DNA of 64,000 nt from Candidatus Wolfebacteria bacterium RIFOXYB1_FULL_54_12 (GCA_001793895.1 MGIT01000001.1:106508-170507); one strand, 5' to 3'; counted from the first letter of the stretch, positions 26,666 through 53,984 are shown. Numbers and translations are program-made. Notes: generated from the letters alone by a model not told the origin.

Positions 26666-27760
26666 TCAACGCATAACCCCACCTCCGATGACAACTCCAT
26701 CGGCATCGTAAAATACGGCAGATTGTCCCACGGCAACAAACCGTTGCGGTTCATCGAATTGCAACCGATAGGCCTCACCATCGGCGACCAATGTCGCCGC
26801 AAACAACGGCTGGCGATAGCGGATGCGCACCATGACCGGAATGGACTTCGGGGGGGCTATGGCGCACATGCCCATGAAATTAAGTTCAACAAGGCCAATA
26901 TCCGCACATGCCTGCTCAAGCAAATGATCATCATGCGAAACCGTGATGACATTGCTTGCGACATCTTTTTTGACCACAAAATACGCCGGTCCGCCCCCGA
27001 CATGCAATCCGTGCCGTTGCCCGATGGTATAAAACCACACACCCTCGTGCTCGCCCACCTTCACTCCGTCGACGGTAACAATGTCGCCCTTCCGTTTCGG
27101 CAGATACTGTTCCAAAAATTCACGCAACGATATCTTCCCCAAAAAACAAATACCTTGGGAATCTTTTTTCTGCGCCGTCGGAAGTCCCGCGGCCGCCGCA
27201 ATCTCCCTGATCTTCGGCTTTTCATAGGCACCGATCGGAAACAAACAATGCCGCAGTTGCTCCTGCGTAAGCGTCCACAAAAAATAACTCTGATCTTTAT
27301 TCCCATCAATCCCTTTCTGTAATGAGTAAGTAGTTTCCTGTTTTTTGTTATCGGTTATAGGTTGTAGGTTATAGGTTGCGCTTCGCGCATAATGCCCCGT
27401 CGCCACATAATCAGCCCCCAACGCAAGCGCCTTTTGCAAAAACACGCCAAACTTGATTTCCTTGTTGCACATCACATCCGGGTTCGGGGTAATGCCGTTG
27501 CGATACCCGTTGACCAAATATTCCACCACGAATTGTTTGTATTCTTCTTCAAGATCGATGACATAAAACGGGATGCCCAAATGTTCGGCAACGCGCCGCG
27601 CATCTTCCGCTTCGCGGTCTTGGCATCCGTCCATGTTATATCCTTTAATGAACGCGCCGATCACATCATAAGTCCCCTGCTCGCGCAACAAAAAAGCGGC
27701 GACACTCGAATCGACGCCGCCCGACATCATGACAAATACTTTTGGCTTTAAACCATTCAT
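26666..27760 (-). CDS. mnmA: tRNA-specific 2-thiouridylase MnmA, with an in-frame tandem-repeat insertion
   Basis: PP-loop SGGVDSS. ATGHYAR. KDQSYFLW. An inserted ATYNLQPITDNKKQ segment is encoded by the (GGTTAT)-type repeat at 27346-27379. Confidence 0.85.
   Translation of the reverse strand: MNGLKPKVFVMMSGGVDSSVAAFLLREQGTYDVIGAFIKGYNMDGCQDREAEDARRVAEHLGIPFYVIDLEEEYKQFVVEYLVNGYRNGITPNPDVMCNKEIKFGVFLQKALALGADYVATGHYARSATYNLQPITDNKKQETTYSLQKGIDGNKDQSYFLWTLTQEQLRHCLFPIGAYEKPKIREIAAAAGLPTAQKKDSQGICFLGKISLREFLEQYLPKRKGDIVTVDGVKVGEHEGVWFYTIGQRHGLHVGGGPAYFVVKKDVASNVITVSHDDHLLEQACADIGLVELNFMGMCAIAPPKSIPVMVRIRYRQPLFAATLVADGEAYRLQFDEPQRFVAVGQSAVFYDADGVVIGGGVMR
27346..27379. repeat. (GGTTAT/GGTTGT)n-type tandem repeat inside the mnmA coding sequence
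   Basis: Sequence ttgttatcggttataggttgtaggttataggttgcg. Confidence 0.8.
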
Positions 27761-31029: not shown

Positions 31030-31117
31030 TTCCGTTATCCGTTATCGGTCATCCGTTTTCGTTTTCGGTTATAGGTTATTAGTTGTAGGTTTTAGGTTAT
31101 TGGTTATCAGTCATTGG
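31030..31117. repeat. Tandem (CCGTTAT)/(GGTTAT)n repeat array abutting the stop codon of 31118..32461
   Basis: Sequence ccgttatccgttatcggtcatccgttttcgttttcggttataggttattagttgtaggttttaggttattggttatcagtcattggttattc. Confidence 0.8.
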
Positions 31118-32461
31118 TTATTCTATCGGCAAATTCTCCGGAGGCTCGCCTTTCTTTGCCTCGATACGGCGCATACTCGGCGCGGTAACCAACGATGACG
31201 GAACATGGTAAAGCGTAGCCAACTCTTCTATGGAAAAGACGGGAGCCTTCTTTATCATGATCCGCTGGCGGTATGCAAAGAACATTGCCCTCTTTTTCAA
31301 AAATTCCTGATGCTTTTTCCACGCCGGAAACAGCCATGCCTTGAAACCTTTCGGCGGGTTTACCGACGTATCCCTGTTTGGCTTGAACGAATTGATATGC
31401 TGGGAACCGAATTGCTTGAATGAGCCGATGATCCCCCCTATATAGGACTTATGAAACGTTTCCTGCCGATCGATAAACACTGCACGCACGCTCACTTCAT
31501 AGCACAGTTTGGATATTTTTCCTTCAATGCCTTCAAGTACTTCCTTTTCAGAAAAGCTCAAAGACGCAATCGTCTTGGGTGGAGCGTCGGATTTTTTCGG
31601 CGGCTCGGGCCATTCCGGAGTGCTTATGAATACAAGAAAAAAATTCTTGATCCACATGACAAGATGATCAAATATGCTCAATTTAGGAGCGACCTTCACC
31701 TCACGGCCTAACATTTTATCGACGATCGCCTGTCCCTTCTTTTTGTAGTCGCTCGTTTTTTCGCCGGTCGGCTTGGATATATATTGCACGAAGATCATTT
31801 CATTCTCGCGGAGCTTCGACATGGTTTCCAAAATGACCGTAAGCGGATCAAGTCGTTGCTCTTCCTCTTTCTCTTCAAAATAGGCGTATGTCTTAATCGG
31901 ATATGCGCTGTCTTTGTCGAGAACCATATCGACGCCCCATACATCATAAACATCGTTGGGCAACATCATCGGCAAGAAGCTGAGATAGTCTTCGACAAGG
32001 GCTATTTCCGCGGCGGGATATTGCGCAAACAATGCGGACTCCACCAAATTGCGGTGCTCGGCAGGTACGCGCACATAAAAATATACACCGCCGCTTCGCC
32101 CGACCATTTCAAACGAAAGGGCGTTTTGAACCTTCCCTTTGATATTTTCATCCCACCATTTGATCTCGCCGGCATAGGTGCCATGTACCGTGGCAAACAC
32201 CTGTTCCATGGATTTCGGACTGCGCAAATTTTCCTTGGGGATGCGCAATTCAAGCACGACCCACTTTTGCGCCTTCTTTGCCGCTTTTTTGTTCGAGTCG
32301 ATGTACAGGTCCCAAAGATAGAACGCCAAAACAACCGGAACGACGGCCCACCATACGTACGAAAAGACCTCGCCAATGCTTTGCGCAATGCCAAGGATGA
32401 TATTCTGCACGACCGGTGTGATCGAAAAATAGTCCAGTAGAAAGTCTGAAATGTTTGCCAT
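31118..32461 (-). CDS. Hypothetical membrane protein (N-terminal TM pair plus a large soluble domain), co-directional and adjacent to the TraD/VirD4-like ATPase
   Basis: 447 aa. TM region VVQNIILGIAQSIGEVFSYVWWAVVPVVLAFYLW. No recognisable motifs. Confidence 0.4.
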   Translation of the reverse strand: MANISDFLLDYFSITPVVQNIILGIAQSIGEVFSYVWWAVVPVVLAFYLWDLYIDSNKKAAKKAQKWVVLELRIPKENLRSPKSMEQVFATVHGTYAGEIKWWDENIKGKVQNALSFEMVGRSGGVYFYVRVPAEHRNLVESALFAQYPAAEIALVEDYLSFLPMMLPNDVYDVWGVDMVLDKDSAYPIKTYAYFEEKEEEQRLDPLTVILETMSKLRENEMIFVQYISKPTGEKTSDYKKKGQAIVDKMLGREVKVAPKLSIFDHLVMWIKNFFLVFISTPEWPEPPKKSDAPPKTIASLSFSEKEVLEGIEGKISKLCYEVSVRAVFIDRQETFHKSYIGGIIGSFKQFGSQHINSFKPNRDTSVNPPKGFKAWLFPAWKKHQEFLKKRAMFFAYRQRIMIKKAPVFSIEELATLYHVPSSLVTAPSMRRIEAKKGEPPENLPIE

Positions 32462-32519
32462 GTATCTCTTTTAGTATATCGCAAAATGGTCCAACAAAAA
32501 AGAGACACTCGTCTCTTTT

Positions 32520-32578
32520 TTGCATTCCGTTATCCGTTATCCGTTTTCGGTTATTGGTTATTGGTTATCCGTTATTTA
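32520..32578. repeat. Tandem (CCGTTAT)/(GGTTAT)n repeat array abutting the stop codon of 32576..33619
   Basis: Sequence ccgttatccgttatccgttttcggttattggttattggttatccgttatttacg. Confidence 0.8.
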
Positions 32579-33619
32579 CGCAACATGATATGTTCCGTTG
32601 TCCAATCGTTTGAAATATTTTTTGTTCTGCAAGTTAAGCAGAATGGTGTTTTCCTTCAAGAATCGCTGAGAGGAAACCAACTGCACGACCTCATGCTGGG
32701 CAAGCGGGCCATTGTCAACAAGCACCTGCTTGATGACGTCCTTTGCCGTACCCGGGAAAAATCCATGCTCGGTCAAACCATACATACCGCGACCTACAAG
32801 GACAAATCGTCCATCCTTGATCAATTCATTATGGATCGTCTGTGCATACACCGGCTTTTTATCGAACCCGACCGAATTGATCGTAGTGGCGATATCGCGG
32901 AAGTGCATCGGCTTGCCATGCTTGCGCAAGATAAGATATGCCTTTGCGCGCGCGGTCTTCGGCGTGATCTCTTCCCAATGGGAAAGACCAAAGTCGGAAT
33001 ACGGATTCACGGAAAACTGTTTCGAGATGCCGAGGTAGTTCATGCCGACGGCGCGGTCGACGTTCGAAGCGGTCGCAACCTGCTTGAAGTGCGGATCGAA
33101 TTGACCCTTGAAGACTATTTCTTCTTTCTTGCCGCCAAAGAACTTGACCGCCTTTTCAATGAAAGTCTCTGCCTTTTTGACGACAGCCTTGTCCGAAGCC
33201 CAAAACCCATAGGAATGATCGCTTTCAGCATGGTACATCGGCTCGCCGGCAATGCGGAAAAGGAAGCGGAACTGATACTTGTTCACGGTCGCATCTTTCA
33301 ACACCGTGCGCATGTCTTCGACAAAATCATCTTCCTTGCGAACGCCGCCCAAGGCAACGAGTTGCTCCTTGGCGATTTGCACCAGGCGATCGCCGCCTGC
33401 ATCGCTAAAACGTTCCCGCGCCAAACGAAGCCCTTCTGCCTCTATCTGGCGCACGCGCTCACGGGTAATGCCGTTGCGTTCGCCGAGTTCCTGCAGGGTC
33501 TTTTCCTGTCCATCGCGAAGTCCAAAACGTTCCTCGACTATTTCTCGCTGTCGAGCGGACAATGCGTGCGTTACCTGTTCGATGATATTGCCTGTGTTCT
33601 TCATAAGAGTTGAATCCAA
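32576..33619 (-). CDS. Sigma-70 region-4-like HTH domain protein fused to a C-terminal domain of unknown function
   Basis: The N-terminus LSARQREIVEERFGL...KTLQELGERNGITRERVRQIEAEGLRLAR is a region-4 HTH. The remaining about 270 aa are unassigned (possible winged-helix/HARE-HTH-like end). Confidence 0.45.
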   Translation of the reverse strand: MDSTLMKNTGNIIEQVTHALSARQREIVEERFGLRDGQEKTLQELGERNGITRERVRQIEAEGLRLARERFSDAGGDRLVQIAKEQLVALGGVRKEDDFVEDMRTVLKDATVNKYQFRFLFRIAGEPMYHAESDHSYGFWASDKAVVKKAETFIEKAVKFFGGKKEEIVFKGQFDPHFKQVATASNVDRAVGMNYLGISKQFSVNPYSDFGLSHWEEITPKTARAKAYLILRKHGKPMHFRDIATTINSVGFDKKPVYAQTIHNELIKDGRFVLVGRGMYGLTEHGFFPGTAKDVIKQVLVDNGPLAQHEVVQLVSSQRFLKENTILLNLQNKKYFKRLDNGTYHVA

Positions 33620-47038: not shown

Positions 47039-47770
47039 TTATACCCTTTGATGATAGAATGTATCCACGATTAGGCGGTTATCGGGTTTCATTTCTCCGA
47101 TGACCGTCTTGTAAATGACCTCCGCGACATCTGCGGGCGTATGGTGCGCCTCTGTGCCTTTGAACAGTTCTTTGAACATGTTCGTCCCTACTGACCCGGG
47201 GGTAATGGTGATCACATCGATCCCCGACTGCACCAGCTCGGCCGACAACGCCTGCGTAAACGCGATCACGCCGGCCTTGGTCGCCGAATAGACGGCAAGC
47301 TCGGGAATGCCACAGAGTCCCGCTCCCGATGAAATATTAATGATGCATTTTCGTTTCACGGTACAACCGTCATGATCGGTTTCCGCAACGCCGGTATCCA
47401 TGCTCTTCAAAGCCTCCTGCGTAACAATAAACATGCCGCCCAGGTTCACATTGACCATGCTTTGCCACTCGGCTTCCGTCGTATCCGCAAATCGCTTGCG
47501 CTGGGCAACGCCCGCATTGTTGATAAGCACATCGATGCCGCCAAAACGCTTCTTCGCTTCCGCAATGGCAAGGGCGACCTGCGCCCGATCGCACACATCC
47601 CCTTCTATGACCAATGTGCGATCAATAGGAAGCGTCATCGCTTCCGAGCTTGTCGCACCATGGGAATAAATGACAACATTCGCACCTTCGGCAATGAACT
47701 TTTTCGCGGTTTCCAATCCGATGCCCGTCGCCCCACCGGTAATGAATACTGTCTTTCCTTTGATATCCAT
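47039..47770 (-). CDS. Short-chain dehydrogenase/reductase (SDR) family oxidoreductase
   Basis: TGGATGIG Rossmann motif, NNAG, catalytic YxxxK (YSATKAG). Start MDIKGKTVFITGG at 47770. Confidence 0.8.
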   Translation of the reverse strand: MDIKGKTVFITGGATGIGLETAKKFIAEGANVVIYSHGATSSEAMTLPIDRTLVIEGDVCDRAQVALAIAEAKKRFGGIDVLINNAGVAQRKRFADTTEAEWQSMVNVNLGGMFIVTQEALKSMDTGVAETDHDGCTVKRKCIINISSGAGLCGIPELAVYSATKAGVIAFTQALSAELVQSGIDVITITPGSVGTNMFKELFKGTEAHHTPADVAEVIYKTVIGEMKPDNRLIVDTFYHQRV

Positions 47771-47794
47771 AATGGTATTAGTATAGCATAACTT

Positions 47795-47920
47795 TTTGTC
47801 ATTCCGGCGGAGGCCGGAATGACAACATAAGAAGTTTGTCATCCTGAACTCGTTTCAGGATCTCATGGTAGTGCGATGAGATTCCGGCCTCCGCCGGAAT
47901 GACAAATGCGCGGTTCTATT
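47795..47920. repeat. Palindromic hairpin repeat cluster
   Basis: Sequence gtcattccggcggaggccggaatgac ... gtcatcctgaactcgtttcaggatc ... gattccggcctccgccggaatgac. Confidence 0.8.
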
Positions 47921-48014
47921 AATAGAACCGCGCATTCACCACCCTCCCACAAAAACAAAGAATCCGCTCGTCCATCAAATGGCGGACGAACAGATCCGGT
48001 AGAATTTCGCATCC

Positions 48015-48050
48015 CTGTTATTAGTTATAGGTTGCTGGTTGTTAGCCTGA
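48015..48050. repeat. (GGTTAT)-type tandem repeat 3' of rplK
   Basis: Sequence cctgttattagttataggttgctggttgttagcc. Confidence 0.65.
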
Positions 48051-48087
48051 AGTCAAATAAAAAACGCCTATGGCGTTTTTTATTTGA
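48051..48087. terminator. Intrinsic terminator hairpin downstream of rplK
   Basis: Sequence gtcaaataaaaaacgcctatggcgttttttatttgac. Confidence 0.65.
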
Positions 48088-48502
48088 CTTCGATTCCCAT
48101 CGATCGGGCTGCGCCCTTGATGATCTTTGCGGCCTGCTCGACGTCTTCAGTGTTAAGATCCACCATTTTCTTTTCGGCGATCTCACGCACCTGCGCCTCG
48201 GTAACGGTTCCCACCTTGATCTTCAGCGGATTCGCCGATCCCTTGGCGACGCCTGCCGCTTTGCGCAACAGATCGGATGCCGGGGAGGTCTTCAGCTTGA
48301 AGTCGAAGGTTCGATCTTCATAGATGTTGATCTCTGCGGGAATGATGCTTCCGACCATATCTTTGGTCGCTTCGTTGAACTGCTGGCAGAACTGCGCGAT
48401 ATTCACGCCGTGCTGACCCAATGCCGGACCAATCGGAGGAGCAGGGTTTGCCGCGCCACCCGGGATCTGAAGCTTAATGATAGTTTTGATTGCTTTTGCC
48501 AT
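48080..48502 (-). CDS. rplK: 50S ribosomal protein L11
   Basis: [35 protein letters not shown] is canonical L11. Confidence 0.9.
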
Positions 48503-49490: not shown

Positions 49491-51494
49491 TTAAGTTATA
49501 TCCAAGTTGCGCACCAATGTTGCATTTGACTGGATGAACTGCTTGCGTGGCGCGACTTCGTCGCCCATCAATATCTCAAACAATCGATCGGCTTCCTGAG
49601 CGTCATCGATCTCAACCTGAAGCAACGTACGGAACTCCGGATTCATAGTCGTTTCCCAAAGCTGGTCGGGGTTCATTTCACCAAGACCCTTATAGCGCTG
49701 CACATTTACGTTCGACTCGCTCTTTTTACCGGCGGTCATTTCCGAAACGGCCTTGTCTTTTTGCTCGGGCGTGTACACATAGCGCACATCCTTACCAAGC
49801 TGGAGGCGGAACAATGGCGGCTGTGCAATGTACAAGAAACCTCCATCGATCACCGGGCGGAAGAAACGATAGAACAAGGTCAATAACAATGTTCGAATGT
49901 GCGCTCCATCAGTATCGGCGTCGGTCATGATGACAACTTTATGGTACCGCAACTTCTCGATATCAAAGCTATCGGAAATGGCAGTGCCGAGCGCAATGAC
50001 CAATGACTTGATTTCGTTATTGACAAGCATCTTGTCGAGCCGCGCGCGCTCGACGTTCAAGATCTTTCCCTTAAGCGGAAGAATGGCCTGGAACCGGCGA
50101 TCACGACCCTGCTTGGCCGAGCCTCCGGCAGAATCGCCTTCGACTATGTACAGCTCGGAATCAGCAGCTTTGCGACTGGAACAATCGGCAAGCTTCCCCG
50201 GCAGAGTCATACCCTCGAGCATGCCTTTGCGCAACACGGTATCCTTTGCGGCTTTTGCGGCCTTACGGGCCTTTTGGGCCAAGATACATTTTTCGATGAT
50301 CGCTTTGCCATCACCCGAATATTTTTCAAAGTATTCCTTTAGCGCTTCAGAGAGCACGGACTCCACTGCTCCGCGCGCTGCCGGCGTTCCTAAGCGGGCC
50401 TTGGTCTGCCCCTCGAATTGCGGATCGCGCAGCTTCACGGAGATGATCGCCGTAATACCCTCGCGCACATCATCGCCGGTCAAGTTATCTTCCGTTCCTT
50501 TTAATGCATTTATGTTGCGCGCGAATTCATTCAACGCGCGCGTCAGGGCCGTGCGAAAACCGGTCACATGCATACCGCCATCCGATGTATAGATATTGTT
50601 TGCAAAACTCAACTCACGAGCATCAGGGTCGTCGTTATAAATAAATGCCGCCTCAACATCAATACTCTCGTAACTTTTATGCGCATAGAAAGTCTCCTTG
50701 TGCACTGGGGTATGATTGCGATTTACATAACGGACGAACGAAATAAGTCCCCCTTCAAAATAGAAGGAGTAATAGAATGGAAGATCCTCTCGATCATCAA
50801 CGATCTCGATGCGGATCCCTTTGGTCAAAAACGCCTGTTGGCGCAAATGGCTTACGATTTCTTTGCGGTCGAATTCGAGCGTGGAGAAAATGGACCCGTC
50901 CGGCTTAAATAAGACCTTTGTTCCGTTGGCCGTGCACTTACCCGCTTTCTTTACATCGTATTGCGGTTTGCCGATCTTATATTCCTGCACATACATCGTG
51001 CCTTCTTTGCACACTTCGATCTTCATCCATGTCGAAAGTGCGTTTACGACCGAAAGGCCCACGCCGTGCAGACCGCCGGAAACCTTGTACGAATCGCCGT
51101 CAAACTTACCGCCGGCATGTAATGTAGTAGCCGCGGTTTCGAGTGCGGATTTTTTTGTCTTCGGGTGAATGTCTACGGGGATACCGCGCCCATCGTCGGC
51201 AACCGTAACCGTGCCGTCTTTCAACAGCTCTACCTTAATGCTCTTGGCATACCCAGCCATGGCTTCATCGAGCGAGTTGTCAAACACCTCCCAGATCAAA
51301 TGATGCAATCCCTGTTCGCCGGTCGAACCGATATACATACCGGGGCGCTTGCGCACCGGCTCCAATCCTTCGAGTACCTGAATATCCTTCGCGCTATACG
51401 AAGCATTCCCCCTGTTGTCGGTCGGTTCGTCCAACTTTTTGGCAGCCGCTTTCCGAGGCTTTTCTTCTTCTATGTTTTCTGCTTTTTTCGCCAT
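49491..51494 (-). CDS. gyrB: DNA gyrase subunit B
   Basis: GHKL ATPase (GLHHLIWEVFDNSLDE...DDGRGIPVD). Toprim (EGDSAGG). C-terminal domain. 667 aa. Confidence 0.85.
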   Translation of the reverse strand: MAKKAENIEEEKPRKAAAKKLDEPTDNRGNASYSAKDIQVLEGLEPVRKRPGMYIGSTGEQGLHHLIWEVFDNSLDEAMAGYAKSIKVELLKDGTVTVADDGRGIPVDIHPKTKKSALETAATTLHAGGKFDGDSYKVSGGLHGVGLSVVNALSTWMKIEVCKEGTMYVQEYKIGKPQYDVKKAGKCTANGTKVLFKPDGSIFSTLEFDRKEIVSHLRQQAFLTKGIRIEIVDDREDLPFYYSFYFEGGLISFVRYVNRNHTPVHKETFYAHKSYESIDVEAAFIYNDDPDARELSFANNIYTSDGGMHVTGFRTALTRALNEFARNINALKGTEDNLTGDDVREGITAIISVKLRDPQFEGQTKARLGTPAARGAVESVLSEALKEYFEKYSGDGKAIIEKCILAQKARKAAKAAKDTVLRKGMLEGMTLPGKLADCSSRKAADSELYIVEGDSAGGSAKQGRDRRFQAILPLKGKILNVERARLDKMLVNNEIKSLVIALGTAISDSFDIEKLRYHKVVIMTDADTDGAHIRTLLLTLFYRFFRPVIDGGFLYIAQPPLFRLQLGKDVRYVYTPEQKDKAVSEMTAGKKSESNVNVQRYKGLGEMNPDQLWETTMNPEFRTLLQVEIDDAQEADRLFEILMGDEVAPRKQFIQSNATLVRNLDIT

Positions 51495-51714: not shown

Positions 51715-52329
51715 CTATTCCAATGCCAACGGGATGCAGGAAGGGACGTCTATTTCACAACCCTCCCGATCCAAACAGATCGTGGTCCAATTGACCTCCG
51801 GCGAATATGATTTTCCAATGATCAAGCAACCCGTCGCCAGCACATTGCCCTCAGTCAGCTCATTCGGAAACTTGGACCGTTTATTACTTCGCAGGGCAAT
51901 CGGAAGTCGAGGAGCCAACTCCACCCAGCCGGTTTTATCAAGACGGATAAGAACCGAGCTATTAAACCCCCTGCGCGGAGCTTCAACGACGATCTCACCA
52001 CTACCTGTTAAAATATCTCCCGGCATAAGCGCCCGCGGCTGGGAAATTGTCGGCGTGCGCAACATGCTTGAACCGTTGCTCTTTTGCCTCTCGTAATATT
52101 CGCGAAGATCGTATGAACGCTCGTGGATCTCGTCGGGCCAACCGGGAGTTTCCAGCTCGGCCAGTCTTCCCGCTCTCATAAGGATCATTGTATTGCTTTT
52201 GCTATCAGCAAAAACGATCCCGACATGATCGCAGGCCTTGTTAGTCCGGATGACGCAATGCTTTCCTTTGTGCTCGCCCGAAATAATACGAAATACCTTA
52301 CTGTCCGGCCTAATGATAGACATGCCCAC
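51715..52329 (-). CDS. Hypothetical protein
   Basis: 204 aa. No recognisable motifs. Confidence 0.35.
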   Translation of the reverse strand: MGMSIIRPDSKVFRIISGEHKGKHCVIRTNKACDHVGIVFADSKSNTMILMRAGRLAELETPGWPDEIHERSYDLREYYERQKSNGSSMLRTPTISQPRALMPGDILTGSGEIVVEAPRRGFNSSVLIRLDKTGWVELAPRLPIALRSNKRSKFPNELTEGNVLATGCLIIGKSYSPEVNWTTICLDREGCEIDVPSCIPLALE

Positions 52330-52497: not shown

Positions 52498-52839
52498 AAA
52501 AACGATACAGGCATTATAAAGAACAACCGGACAAAAGTGAAGTCATGGAAATAAAAAAACGACCTCTATGGTCGACGCGAATAAAGAAAACAAACCCGGT
52601 TGATGGCGATCGAACGAACCCAGTATTCCACGCAAGAAGAATGTAAGAATTCCCATATGAAATTGTCTGCCCATGCGCACAATAAAATACTGTATTTAGT
52701 ATAGGGCAACCAAATAAGATATACAACACCCGCACACCTTTTCTGTAACCCCGGCGGAGCTCGCCACGTGGAAAGTAGAAACTTTCTTTACGTGGGCCGG
52801 AGGAGTCCAGCGTTTTCCGCGATAGCGGTAGCTGGACAT

Positions 52840-53290
52840 TCAGACCCTAACAATGCCGGGAATGACGATGCGAGATTGGGTGTCATCCCCGTCCGTCCGC
52901 CAGCCGGCGGACGGAGGGATCCATGGTTTTTGCAGTAGTAGGGCTGGGATACCCAGACTCTGGATTCCCGTTTTCACGGGAATGACAATACCGAGGTGAC
53001 AAAGCAAGAAAATACTCATACAAAAAGGTTGTGACCCCGGCGGAGCTCGCCACGTGGTCCGCCAATGGCGGATCGGAATGACACCATCCACGCATTGTCA
53101 TGTCGACGCCTACCCGCCTTGGTCGGGAAGGCCGGTATCCGGTGTCTTGCATTGTCATTCCGAGAGTAGCGGAGCGGAGCCAAGGAATCTGTTTTTAGTA
53201 CGGATCCCTGCTCCACCTCCGCCAGCTGGCGGATATGGCGGCACGCGGTCGATTTAATTCCGCTTCGCTATATTGCACTCGGGATGACAG
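52840..53290. repeat. Dense array of palindromic hairpin repeats in a roughly 1-kb ORF-free region
   Basis: At least six GTCAT...ATGAC-type units. A 24-nt direct repeat accccggcggagctcgccacgtgg occurs at 52748 and 53033. Confidence 0.8.
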
Positions 53291-53476
53291 AAAGAACTGC
53301 TATCGAATTAGTAAACAATTTGCCGTGTTTATTACCACCGCTTGAATTCGTTTGGTATGCGCGTTAGCTAAGCAATAATTGACTACAGCCAATAAGTGTT
53401 CTATACTTGTTCTATATTAGAATAAATACATTGAATACTGCTCACGTTTTATTGTTCTATCTACGTTCTAACATAT

Positions 53477-53938
53477 ATGTCCATAACAAAAACACAAAAA
53501 CAAATATTGGATATCTTTGAAAAAAATGGCGGGGCACTTCCTTCGTTTCGCGAAATAGCCCGTCAGATTGGAGTGTCGTCGACAAACACTGTCTCCTATC
53601 ATATAGAGCGCCTGCGAAAGAATGGCTACCTCGATATCGGACACTCCCCCCAAGGGATGGCAAACCTGTCACTTAAAACGATTCTTGCCTTGGATGCGAA
53701 GCCGGGAGTCTACGTGGTTCTCTGCGCGAACAAACCATTTTATATTGGGTCGTCCACGAACATCCGAAAGGACATTCTTGAAACGGTCATTGGCATAGAC
53801 CGGTCCCCGTTTCCACAGATCGTCGGCAAGCCGGAAGAACTGTCCATTGCCTACCACATCATCGAAAGCGAACCCGAACGGGCCGACCTCAAACAATACC
53901 TGCTCGAATTTTACCAAGCCAAGGGCATCGACATATGA
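53477..53938 (+). CDS. LexA-type winged-helix DNA-binding domain fused to a GIY-YIG nuclease-like domain
   Basis: N-terminus LTKTQKQILDIFEKNGGALPSFREIARQIGVSSTNTVSYHIERLRKNGYL matches the LexA DNA-binding domain pattern. It is followed by GVYVVLCANKPFYIGSSTNIRKDI (GIY...YIG...R). No S24 peptidase domain. Confidence 0.6.
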   Translation: MSITKTQKQILDIFEKNGGALPSFREIARQIGVSSTNTVSYHIERLRKNGYLDIGHSPQGMANLSLKTILALDAKPGVYVVLCANKPFYIGSSTNIRKDILETVIGIDRSPFPQIVGKPEELSIAYHIIESEPERADLKQYLLEFYQAKGIDI

Positions 53939-53980
53939 ACAATAAAACGGTCCGCCAACATGGCGGACCGTTTTATTGTT
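53938..53980. terminator. Bidirectional intrinsic terminator hairpin
   Basis: Sequence aacaataaaacggtccgccaacatggcggaccgttttattgtt. Confidence 0.65.
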
Positions 53981-53984
53981 TTTA

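Follow-up and report, generated by a model that had tools for sequence, protein, structure and literature searches.

The window analysed here is a 64,000-nucleotide stretch of DNA (64 kb, 49.6% G+C) from a genome of Candidatus Wolfebacteria, in the candidate phyla radiation, and its nearest relatives are metagenome-assembled genomes of Candidatus Wolfebacteria. It holds one copy of a gene for a small two-domain protein. The features in and around this gene, in coordinates of the window, are these:

52740..53290, no strand: imperfect GC-rich hairpin cluster in a variable spacer, with hairpins of the GGAATGAC/GTCATYCC type and of the CCGCCAGCCGGCGG type
53379..53407, + strand: predicted sigma-70-type promoter, TTGACT, 17-nt spacer, TATACT (10 of 12 consensus matches)
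53398..53414, + strand: putative operator pair 1, GTTCTAtacttGTTCTA, a direct repeat with an 11-bp period that spans the -10 hexamer and the transcription start region
53454..53470, + strand: putative operator pair 2, GTTCTAtctacGTTCTA, offset by 56 bp from pair 1 towards the gene, with 6 nt between its end and the ATG
53477..53938, + strand: gene for the two-domain protein, 153 aa, stop codon within the range (from the ORF listing and homologues)
53483..53638, + strand: LexA-type winged helix-turn-helix, residues 3-54 (from Pfam, TIGR00498, AlphaFold2 and LexA DNA-binding domain structures)
53702..53935, + strand: GIY-YIG-fold domain, UvrC-like, with a degenerate active site, residues 76-153
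53937..53981, no strand: bidirectional intrinsic terminator hairpin, a 20-bp stem followed by a T-run, common to this gene and a convergent mraY-like gene (53985-55064, - strand)

The ATG of the window gene lies two codons upstream of the ATG of its orthologues, whose start position reads ATA in the window, so that box 4 and the start codon are only 6 nt apart. We see no Shine-Dalgarno sequence ahead of the start at 53477.

The earlier note on this DNA had described a LexA-type DNA-binding domain fused to a GIY-YIG module, and both calls are correct for fold and homology. The Pfam family LexA_DNA_bind (PF01726) matches residues 3-54 with 40.3 bits against a cut-off of 23.7 (E=2.8e-10), and it outscores every other helix-turn-helix family in Pfam over these residues. 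We modelled the protein with AlphaFold2 using the family alignment, and the model is confident, with a mean pLDDT of 88. It shows helices at residues 5-16, 24-31 and 36-48 and a wing strand at 59-63, which is a three-helix winged helix-turn-helix, and the structural matches of this domain are LexA DNA-binding domains (1leb, 1jhf and 3jso). The recognition helix is S35-T-N-T-V-S-Y-H42. An Elusimicrobia LexA that does carry the S24 peptidase domain, from locus L012, is 40% identical to the window protein across residues 1-52, and its recognition helix, STNTVSYH, is the same.

Despite belonging to the LexA DNA-binding domain family at its N-terminus, the whole protein is not a LexA. The NCBIfam lexA model TIGR00498 gives 34 bits against a cut-off of 110.95, and the N-terminus of the model alone aligns. 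As the earlier note had stated, the S24 autopeptidase domain is absent: neither Pfam nor NCBIfam finds it in the window protein, and the Ala-Gly cleavage site and the Ser/Lys dyad are absent too. A protein with no S24 domain would not be expected to undergo RecA-stimulated self-cleavage. We exclude it from the LexA proteins because it lacks both the S24 domain and the palindromic operator.

The C-terminal half has the core of the GIY-YIG fold. In the AlphaFold2 model it runs beta(77-83)-beta(86-93)-alpha(96-105)-alpha(113-117)-beta(122-128)-alpha(132-148), so the beta-hairpin, the 'arginine helix', the linker strand and the 'glutamate helix' can all be recognized. The top Foldseek matches are UvrC from two species, with probability 1.00; LexA is matched as well. 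[quoted passage not shown] Single sequences do much less well. The Pfam GIY-YIG match of the window protein is 17.6 bits, below the cut-off of 22.6, and joins residues 76-98 to profile positions 2-25 of 78; 9 of 19 family members match PF01541 weakly (best E=2e-4), and the NCBIfam UvrC and Cho models match weakly over residues 66-104. The lead-in 'L..L...PGVY' and the signatures 'P.YIG' and 'L...Y' are common to the window protein and UvrC/Cho. Unlike UvrC, the window protein has no UvrB-binding, RNase H-like or HhH domains, and its GIY-YIG domain lies C-terminal to the DNA-binding domain. No uvrC gene was found in the window.

The residues needed for catalysis are another matter. We mapped the active site of UvrC onto the window protein through the profile-UvrC alignment and counted variation across 18 close homologues:

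UvrC Y19 (the GIY Tyr): Y79 in the window protein; Tyr in 17 of 18
UvrC Y29 (the YIG Tyr): Y89; Tyr, His, Phe or Thr in close homologues
UvrC K32: S92; Ser in 17 and Ala in 1 of 18
UvrC R39 (the invariant Arg, R27 of I-TevI): D99; Asp, His or Tyr in the family
UvrC E76 (the metal-binding Glu, E75 of I-TevI): K139; Lys or Arg in 16 of 18, Glu in 2 of 18
UvrC N88 (the Asn of motif E): no counterpart, since the protein ends near there; Ile, Phe or Val

The earlier note had read a 'GIY...YIG...R core' here. Its first two elements stand, as GVY (residues 77-79) and YIG (89-91), and its third does not. R97 aligns with S37 of UvrC, two residues ahead of the catalytic Arg position, which lies at the YIG Tyr +10 and is occupied by D99. 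The register is identical when a canonical small GIY-YIG protein is aligned by hhalign, FYIGSTNNLKRR against FYIGSSTNIRKD. In more distant metagenomic members the YIG motif itself decays, to YVK, RIE, LVE or FVS. In structural work on Hpy188I the arginine is described as invariant and as touching both the attacking water and the scissile phosphate, and the glutamate as anchoring the single catalytic metal (PMC3045582). The Asn of motif E may be missing in some GIY-YIG families (PMC1564403). Since the Arg and the Glu are both lost with reversal of charge, and the YIG motif drifts, we argue from the alignments that the domain is probably a pseudo-nuclease domain retained for a non-catalytic role. 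The nuclease of the earlier note depended on an intact Tyr, Arg and Glu, and on the substitutions listed above it fails. Formally, the retention of Y79, the proposed general base, and a Glu139 in two members leave room in these sequences for residual or non-canonical catalysis.

The protein belongs to a small family. A word-indexed search returned 17 homologues of 151-160 aa with 42-93% identity to the window protein, and the S24 domain is absent from all 17. At source they are called 'LexA repressor', 'biotin operon repressor' or 'HTH domain-containing protein', among other names. Among 1.84 billion cluster representatives, searched exhaustively with HMMER, there were about 5 full-length clusters at 50% identity and two more fragments with the C-terminal domain only; the remaining matches were to the winged helix-turn-helix alone. 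A further 18 full-length loci, 37-91% identical, came from metagenome contigs. Mean pairwise identity within the family is 70% for the N-terminal domain and 57% for the C-terminal domain, which indicates that constraint acts on both.

The conserved element that accompanies the gene is a direct repeat, GTTCTA-N5-GTTCTA, with an 11-bp period. In five aligned promoters of Wolfebacteria orthologues the GTTCTA boxes are invariant and their flanks have diverged, and DNA homology of the window to L001, L007 and L010 begins at 53394-53398, which is box 1. An exact pair is present in 13 of the 16 distinct lineages examined (one of them with N6); L028 has a pair with one mismatch, and a clear pair is missing in 2 of the 16, L031/L032 and L033. 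The pair is kept where the proteins are 37-49% identical and the surrounding genes are unrelated (L004, L013, L021-L030). When both strands of the window and 16 loci were scanned, about 206 kb in all, every exact N5 pair lay no more than about 130 nt upstream of the family gene and on the same strand; some 0.02 pairs would be expected there by chance under uniform base composition. Beyond the two pairs before the gene, the 64-kb window has no exact N5 pair. In the Wolfebacteria the two pairs are offset by exactly 56 bp in the window, L009, L007, L010/L002 and L015, and L014 is the exception.

The boxes also sit on the promoter. In the window prediction the -10 hexamer falls inside box 1 and the start site under box 2. 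Distant lineages often read GTTCTATAATTGTTCTATG, in which TATAAT matches the -10 hexamer perfectly and the second box reaches into the ATG; in several of them a box over the start codon implies a leaderless transcript. Part of the conservation of the boxes could be conservation of the promoter, because the boxes overlap a -10-like sequence. The repeated GTTC part is not a promoter element. The lexA promoter of L012, divergent from recA, reads TAGAAC-N6-TAGAAC plus a GTTCTA, and GTTCTA boxes are absent at LexA-like proteins with other recognition helices. We infer from these sequences that the winged helix probably reads GTTCTA and that the protein would repress its own promoter from tandem sites on one face of the DNA.

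One other sequence in the window resembles these boxes. A 32-nt perfect palindrome, AATGCGCGGTTCTATTAATAGAACCGCGCATT, at 47905-47936 holds inverted boxes, GTTCTA-N4-TAGAAC, 63-94 nt upstream of a short-chain dehydrogenase gene (47039-47842, - strand). We considered it as a second conserved target and think this unlikely, since the spacer that holds it is missing or much shorter (about 55 nt) in orthologous loci.

We think it probable that the window protein is an autorepressor with a pseudo-nuclease domain. With its catalytic residues lost, the protein is most likely a sequence-specific transcription factor that regulates itself, and not a nuclease. The LexA-clade winged helix would recognize the GTTCTA boxes, which are head-to-tail direct repeats; their 11-bp period places them on one face of the helix. 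Boxes over the -10 hexamer and the transcription start point to autorepression by tandem binding, in which the bound protein would block RNA polymerase. The C-terminal domain descends from the GIY-YIG domain of a UvrC/Cho-type nuclease and is without the catalytic Arg, Glu and Asn. It most likely stands in for the S24 domain of LexA as a module for oligomerization or cooperativity, and may also serve to sense a signal or a ligand. A module of this kind would fit with tandem operators having taken the place of palindromic ones. A direct-repeat operator is unusual for LexA-type domains, and this counts against the autorepressor reading. Of the three roles offered in the earlier note, the only one that fits the evidence is a repressor that has kept a nuclease fold.

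There are precedents for parts of this scheme. The winged-helix domains of OmpR/PhoB-type regulators bind head-to-tail direct repeats spaced by about one helical turn and lying over promoter elements. They have no sequence relation to the window protein, they carry a receiver domain and they are usually activators, so the comparison is one of analogy and not of homology. I-TevI combines a GIY-YIG nuclease with a sequence-specific DNA-binding domain that contains a helix-turn-helix, and it occupies an operator that covers its own promoter and does not cut there. Edgell et al. 2004 reportedly described it as an autorepressor there, which makes it a precedent for a GIY-YIG protein in this role. 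The differences are that I-TevI is active, intron-encoded and mobile, with its nuclease N-terminal and its DNA-binding domain C-terminal, whereas the family protein has the reverse order and a lost active site, and its gene is chromosomal and syntenic. A protein of Symbiobacterium thermophilum has an N-terminal LuxR-type winged helix fused to a GIY-YIG domain (PMC1564403). Its winged helix is of the LuxR/COG3860 kind and its GIY-YIG domain, of the HEase cluster, is presumably active, and there is no evidence that it is related to the present family. The 2006 survey of the GIY-YIG superfamily mentions no fusion to a LexA-type domain and does not use the word 'inactive' (PMC1564403). We found no equivalent in the literature on GIY-YIG proteins with LexA or a winged helix, or on inactive GIY-YIG domains in transcription.

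If this is right, the LexA DNA-binding domain has been re-used with another partner and its operator has changed from a palindrome to a tandem repeat, and the family would be a natural case study in how oligomerization modules dictate the geometry of binding sites. It would also add a catalytically dead GIY-YIG fold to the transcription factors; none is mentioned in the literature we searched or in the 2006 survey. A database annotation is corrected, because a homologue is named 'LexA repressor' in a family without the cleavage domain. GTTCTA-N5-GTTCTA is a concrete candidate operator for unculturable organisms whose regulation is almost unknown. With about five clusters among 1.84 billion representatives, the biological reach of the family is narrow unless an SOS-like reading is true.

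That reading holds that the protein is the functional LexA of its lineage, an SOS-type repressor of DNA-damage genes inactivated by some means other than RecA-stimulated self-cleavage, for example by its UvrC-derived domain sensing a repair protein or DNA that is damaged or single-stranded. The DNA-binding domain is LexA-clade, and its recognition helix and GTTCTA boxes are shared with the genuine lexA-recA locus of L012. The family gene, like lexA, which is typically autoregulated, is preceded by boxes that look like its own binding sites. LexA boxes of the Gram-positive type contain GTTC/GAAC, as does the GTTCTA half-site. The partner domain descends from a nucleotide-excision-repair nuclease, and NCBI does call one homologue 'LexA repressor'. 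On the other side, the S24 domain, the Ala-Gly site and the Ser/Lys dyad are all missing, and the boxes repeat in direct orientation every 11 bp where the LexA operator is palindromic. No boxes are found before any other gene in the 64 kb or in the flanks of the scanned loci. The neighbours are cell-wall and housekeeping genes and not repair genes, and no link to recA is seen. We consider this reading unlikely, if the best of the alternatives.

A more specific version of it would make the protein a LexA-derived repressor of candidate phyla radiation bacteria with reduced genomes, in which a nuclease-dead UvrC-type domain was swapped in for the RecA-dependent self-cleaving domain and acts as a sensor of damage or of a signal. 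The dead domain would, for example, bind to a repair complex or to DNA that is damaged or single-stranded, and in this way draw the repressor off its tandem GTTCTA operators. We hold this to be rather improbable. Were it true, these bacteria would reach an SOS-like response without RecA and without proteolysis, and the fold of a repair nuclease would have been recruited to regulation as a sensor.

The earlier note had put forward a site-specific nickase or nuclease, possibly a selfish element of the homing-endonuclease kind, and after the loss of the canonical residues this would need a non-canonical site made of Y79, R97/K98 and E134/R135 that cuts near the target of the winged helix. Such a site has something to be said for it. 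The fold is intact, and the window protein does have the GVY and the YIG. Y79 and the pair E134-R135 are nearly invariant, and an Arg or Lys at 97 is conserved. The group I intron endonuclease model TIGR01453 matches weakly, over residues 75-98 only. Active sites do vary in the superfamily: in Hpy188I a KIG replaces the YIG and the Glu is supplied in trans (PMC3045582). Still, the invariant Arg and the metal-anchoring Glu are replaced with charge reversed, there is no Asn, and within the family the YIG motif decays. The putative recognition sites are conserved in the gene's own promoter, where an active nuclease would cut.

Nor does the gene behave as a homing element, and that part of the claim falls. 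The gene order in the Wolfebacteria is L11-NusG-SecE-gyrB-tRNA-Gly, a variable spacer, the family gene and the convergent mraY-like gene, with an S11 carboxypeptidase, scpB and a purine DNA glycosylase past the last of these (hsp20 precedes the glycosylase in orthologous loci). The order is kept at protein identities between 62% and 91%. In L014 the family gene is inverted relative to mraY, and in L004 and L013 it lies in unrelated neighbourhoods. No full-length relatives were found in the IMG/VR viral contigs or the GenBank phages, and matches from PHROGs and PADLOC are confined to the winged helix. The gene lies outside any intron or intein. Conserved synteny, a single copy in the window and the lack of full-length viral or phage relatives establish that its inheritance is vertical and not by homing. 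We regard an active nuclease here as very unlikely.

Some inverted repeats do flank the gene. A 13-nt perfect inverted repeat surrounds the open reading frame (53445-53457 and 53937-53949) and is not conserved in L007 or L010. Within it is a 12-mer, CGTTTTATTGTT, that occurs just three times in the 64-kb window (53445-53456, 53938-53949 on the - strand and 53969-53980; 0.02 expected by chance). One copy is in the leader between the box pairs, and the two arms of the terminator hairpin past the gene have one each. In the mRNA the terminator's left arm could base-pair with the copy in the leader; this arrangement is confined to the lineage of the window and L009. Orthologues carry analogous terminator hairpins of different sequence. 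In L004 (P0017, a lineage at 42% identity) two copies of a 28-nt perfect palindrome, GGTTATTTCAACGATCGTTGAAATAACC, enclose the gene together with its promoter, at 5873-5900 and 6506-6533, and their outer stems differ by compensatory changes; the gene is bracketed likewise in L005, L006, L011 and L025, and no further copies occur in the 12-kb loci. We rejected the idea that such repeats are in general the ends of a mobile cassette, since they are found in some lineages only and their sequences are unrelated. Elsewhere in the neighbourhood, the gyrB of L009 (270-1569) holds an insertion of about 1.3 kb, possibly an intein or homing element, that is missing from the gyrB of the window (50117-50120). 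Between gyrB and the tRNA-Gly(CCC) lies a 204-aa open reading frame (51715-52329, - strand) with no Pfam match, in a stretch that aligns to L009 with 84% DNA identity.

It might also be argued that the protein is a regulator or antidote for a small free-standing GIY-YIG nuclease, its inactive domain mimicking or pairing with the active enzyme. In L013 a canonical 87-aa GIY-YIG gene with Arg and Glu intact (5465-5728, + strand) follows the family gene by 12 nt on the same strand, and in L001 a truncated small copy (5439-5663, - strand) lies in the upstream spacer. Small GIY-YIG genes are common, however, and multi-copy in many bacteria. No such neighbour was found in the remaining lineages, the window has none, and with an intact one in 1 of about 17 lineages we rejected the association and regard the antidote as highly improbable.

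The weakest of the readings is that the protein processes or binds the GTCATTCC...GGAATGAC hairpins, as a REP-associated transposase does, and we find it scarcely credible, for although the hairpin cluster lies about 190 nt from the gene, with hairpins of the same kind upstream in L010/L002 and flanking the gene in L026-L028, these hairpins form a dispersed REP-like family in at least 9 separate spacers of the window beside unrelated genes, the closest relative of the window does not conserve the array, the flanking repeats of other lineages differ in sequence, the domain is catalytically degenerate, and it is GTTCTA and not the hairpin that is conserved with the gene.

The details are these. 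The spacer at 52498-53476 is non-coding, about 980 nt long, and contains several imperfect GC-rich hairpins, none of which matches an Rfam family. Even between the window (52771-53249) and L009 (4307-4766), its closest relative, the array has diverged, and in L001/L002 it is replaced by other sequence, open reading frames included. The hairpin families (TGTCATTCCCGCGGAGGCGGGAATC and its relatives) recur at 1444, 1678, 15464, 16110, 29020, 45465, 47790 and 51532 and elsewhere in the window. In other lineages different hairpin repeats stand on both sides of the gene, which fits a general filling of spacers by REP-like elements. We therefore rejected the array as a partner specific to this gene: its motifs are dispersed, it is not conserved, and it matches no Rfam family. 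The functional link suggested in the earlier note is not supported, and the array lies outside the conserved unit of the gene. The note's description of this array as the densest palindromic one in the window does not hold either; by perfect stems of at least 9 bp the region 47500-48100 is the densest. The window has intergenic repeats of another kind as well, tracts with a 7-nt period (GGTTATN, for example GGTTATAGGTTATTAGTTGTAGGTTTTAGGTTATTGGTTATC) at 7971-8030, 27307-27401, 31042-31129 and 32517-32590.
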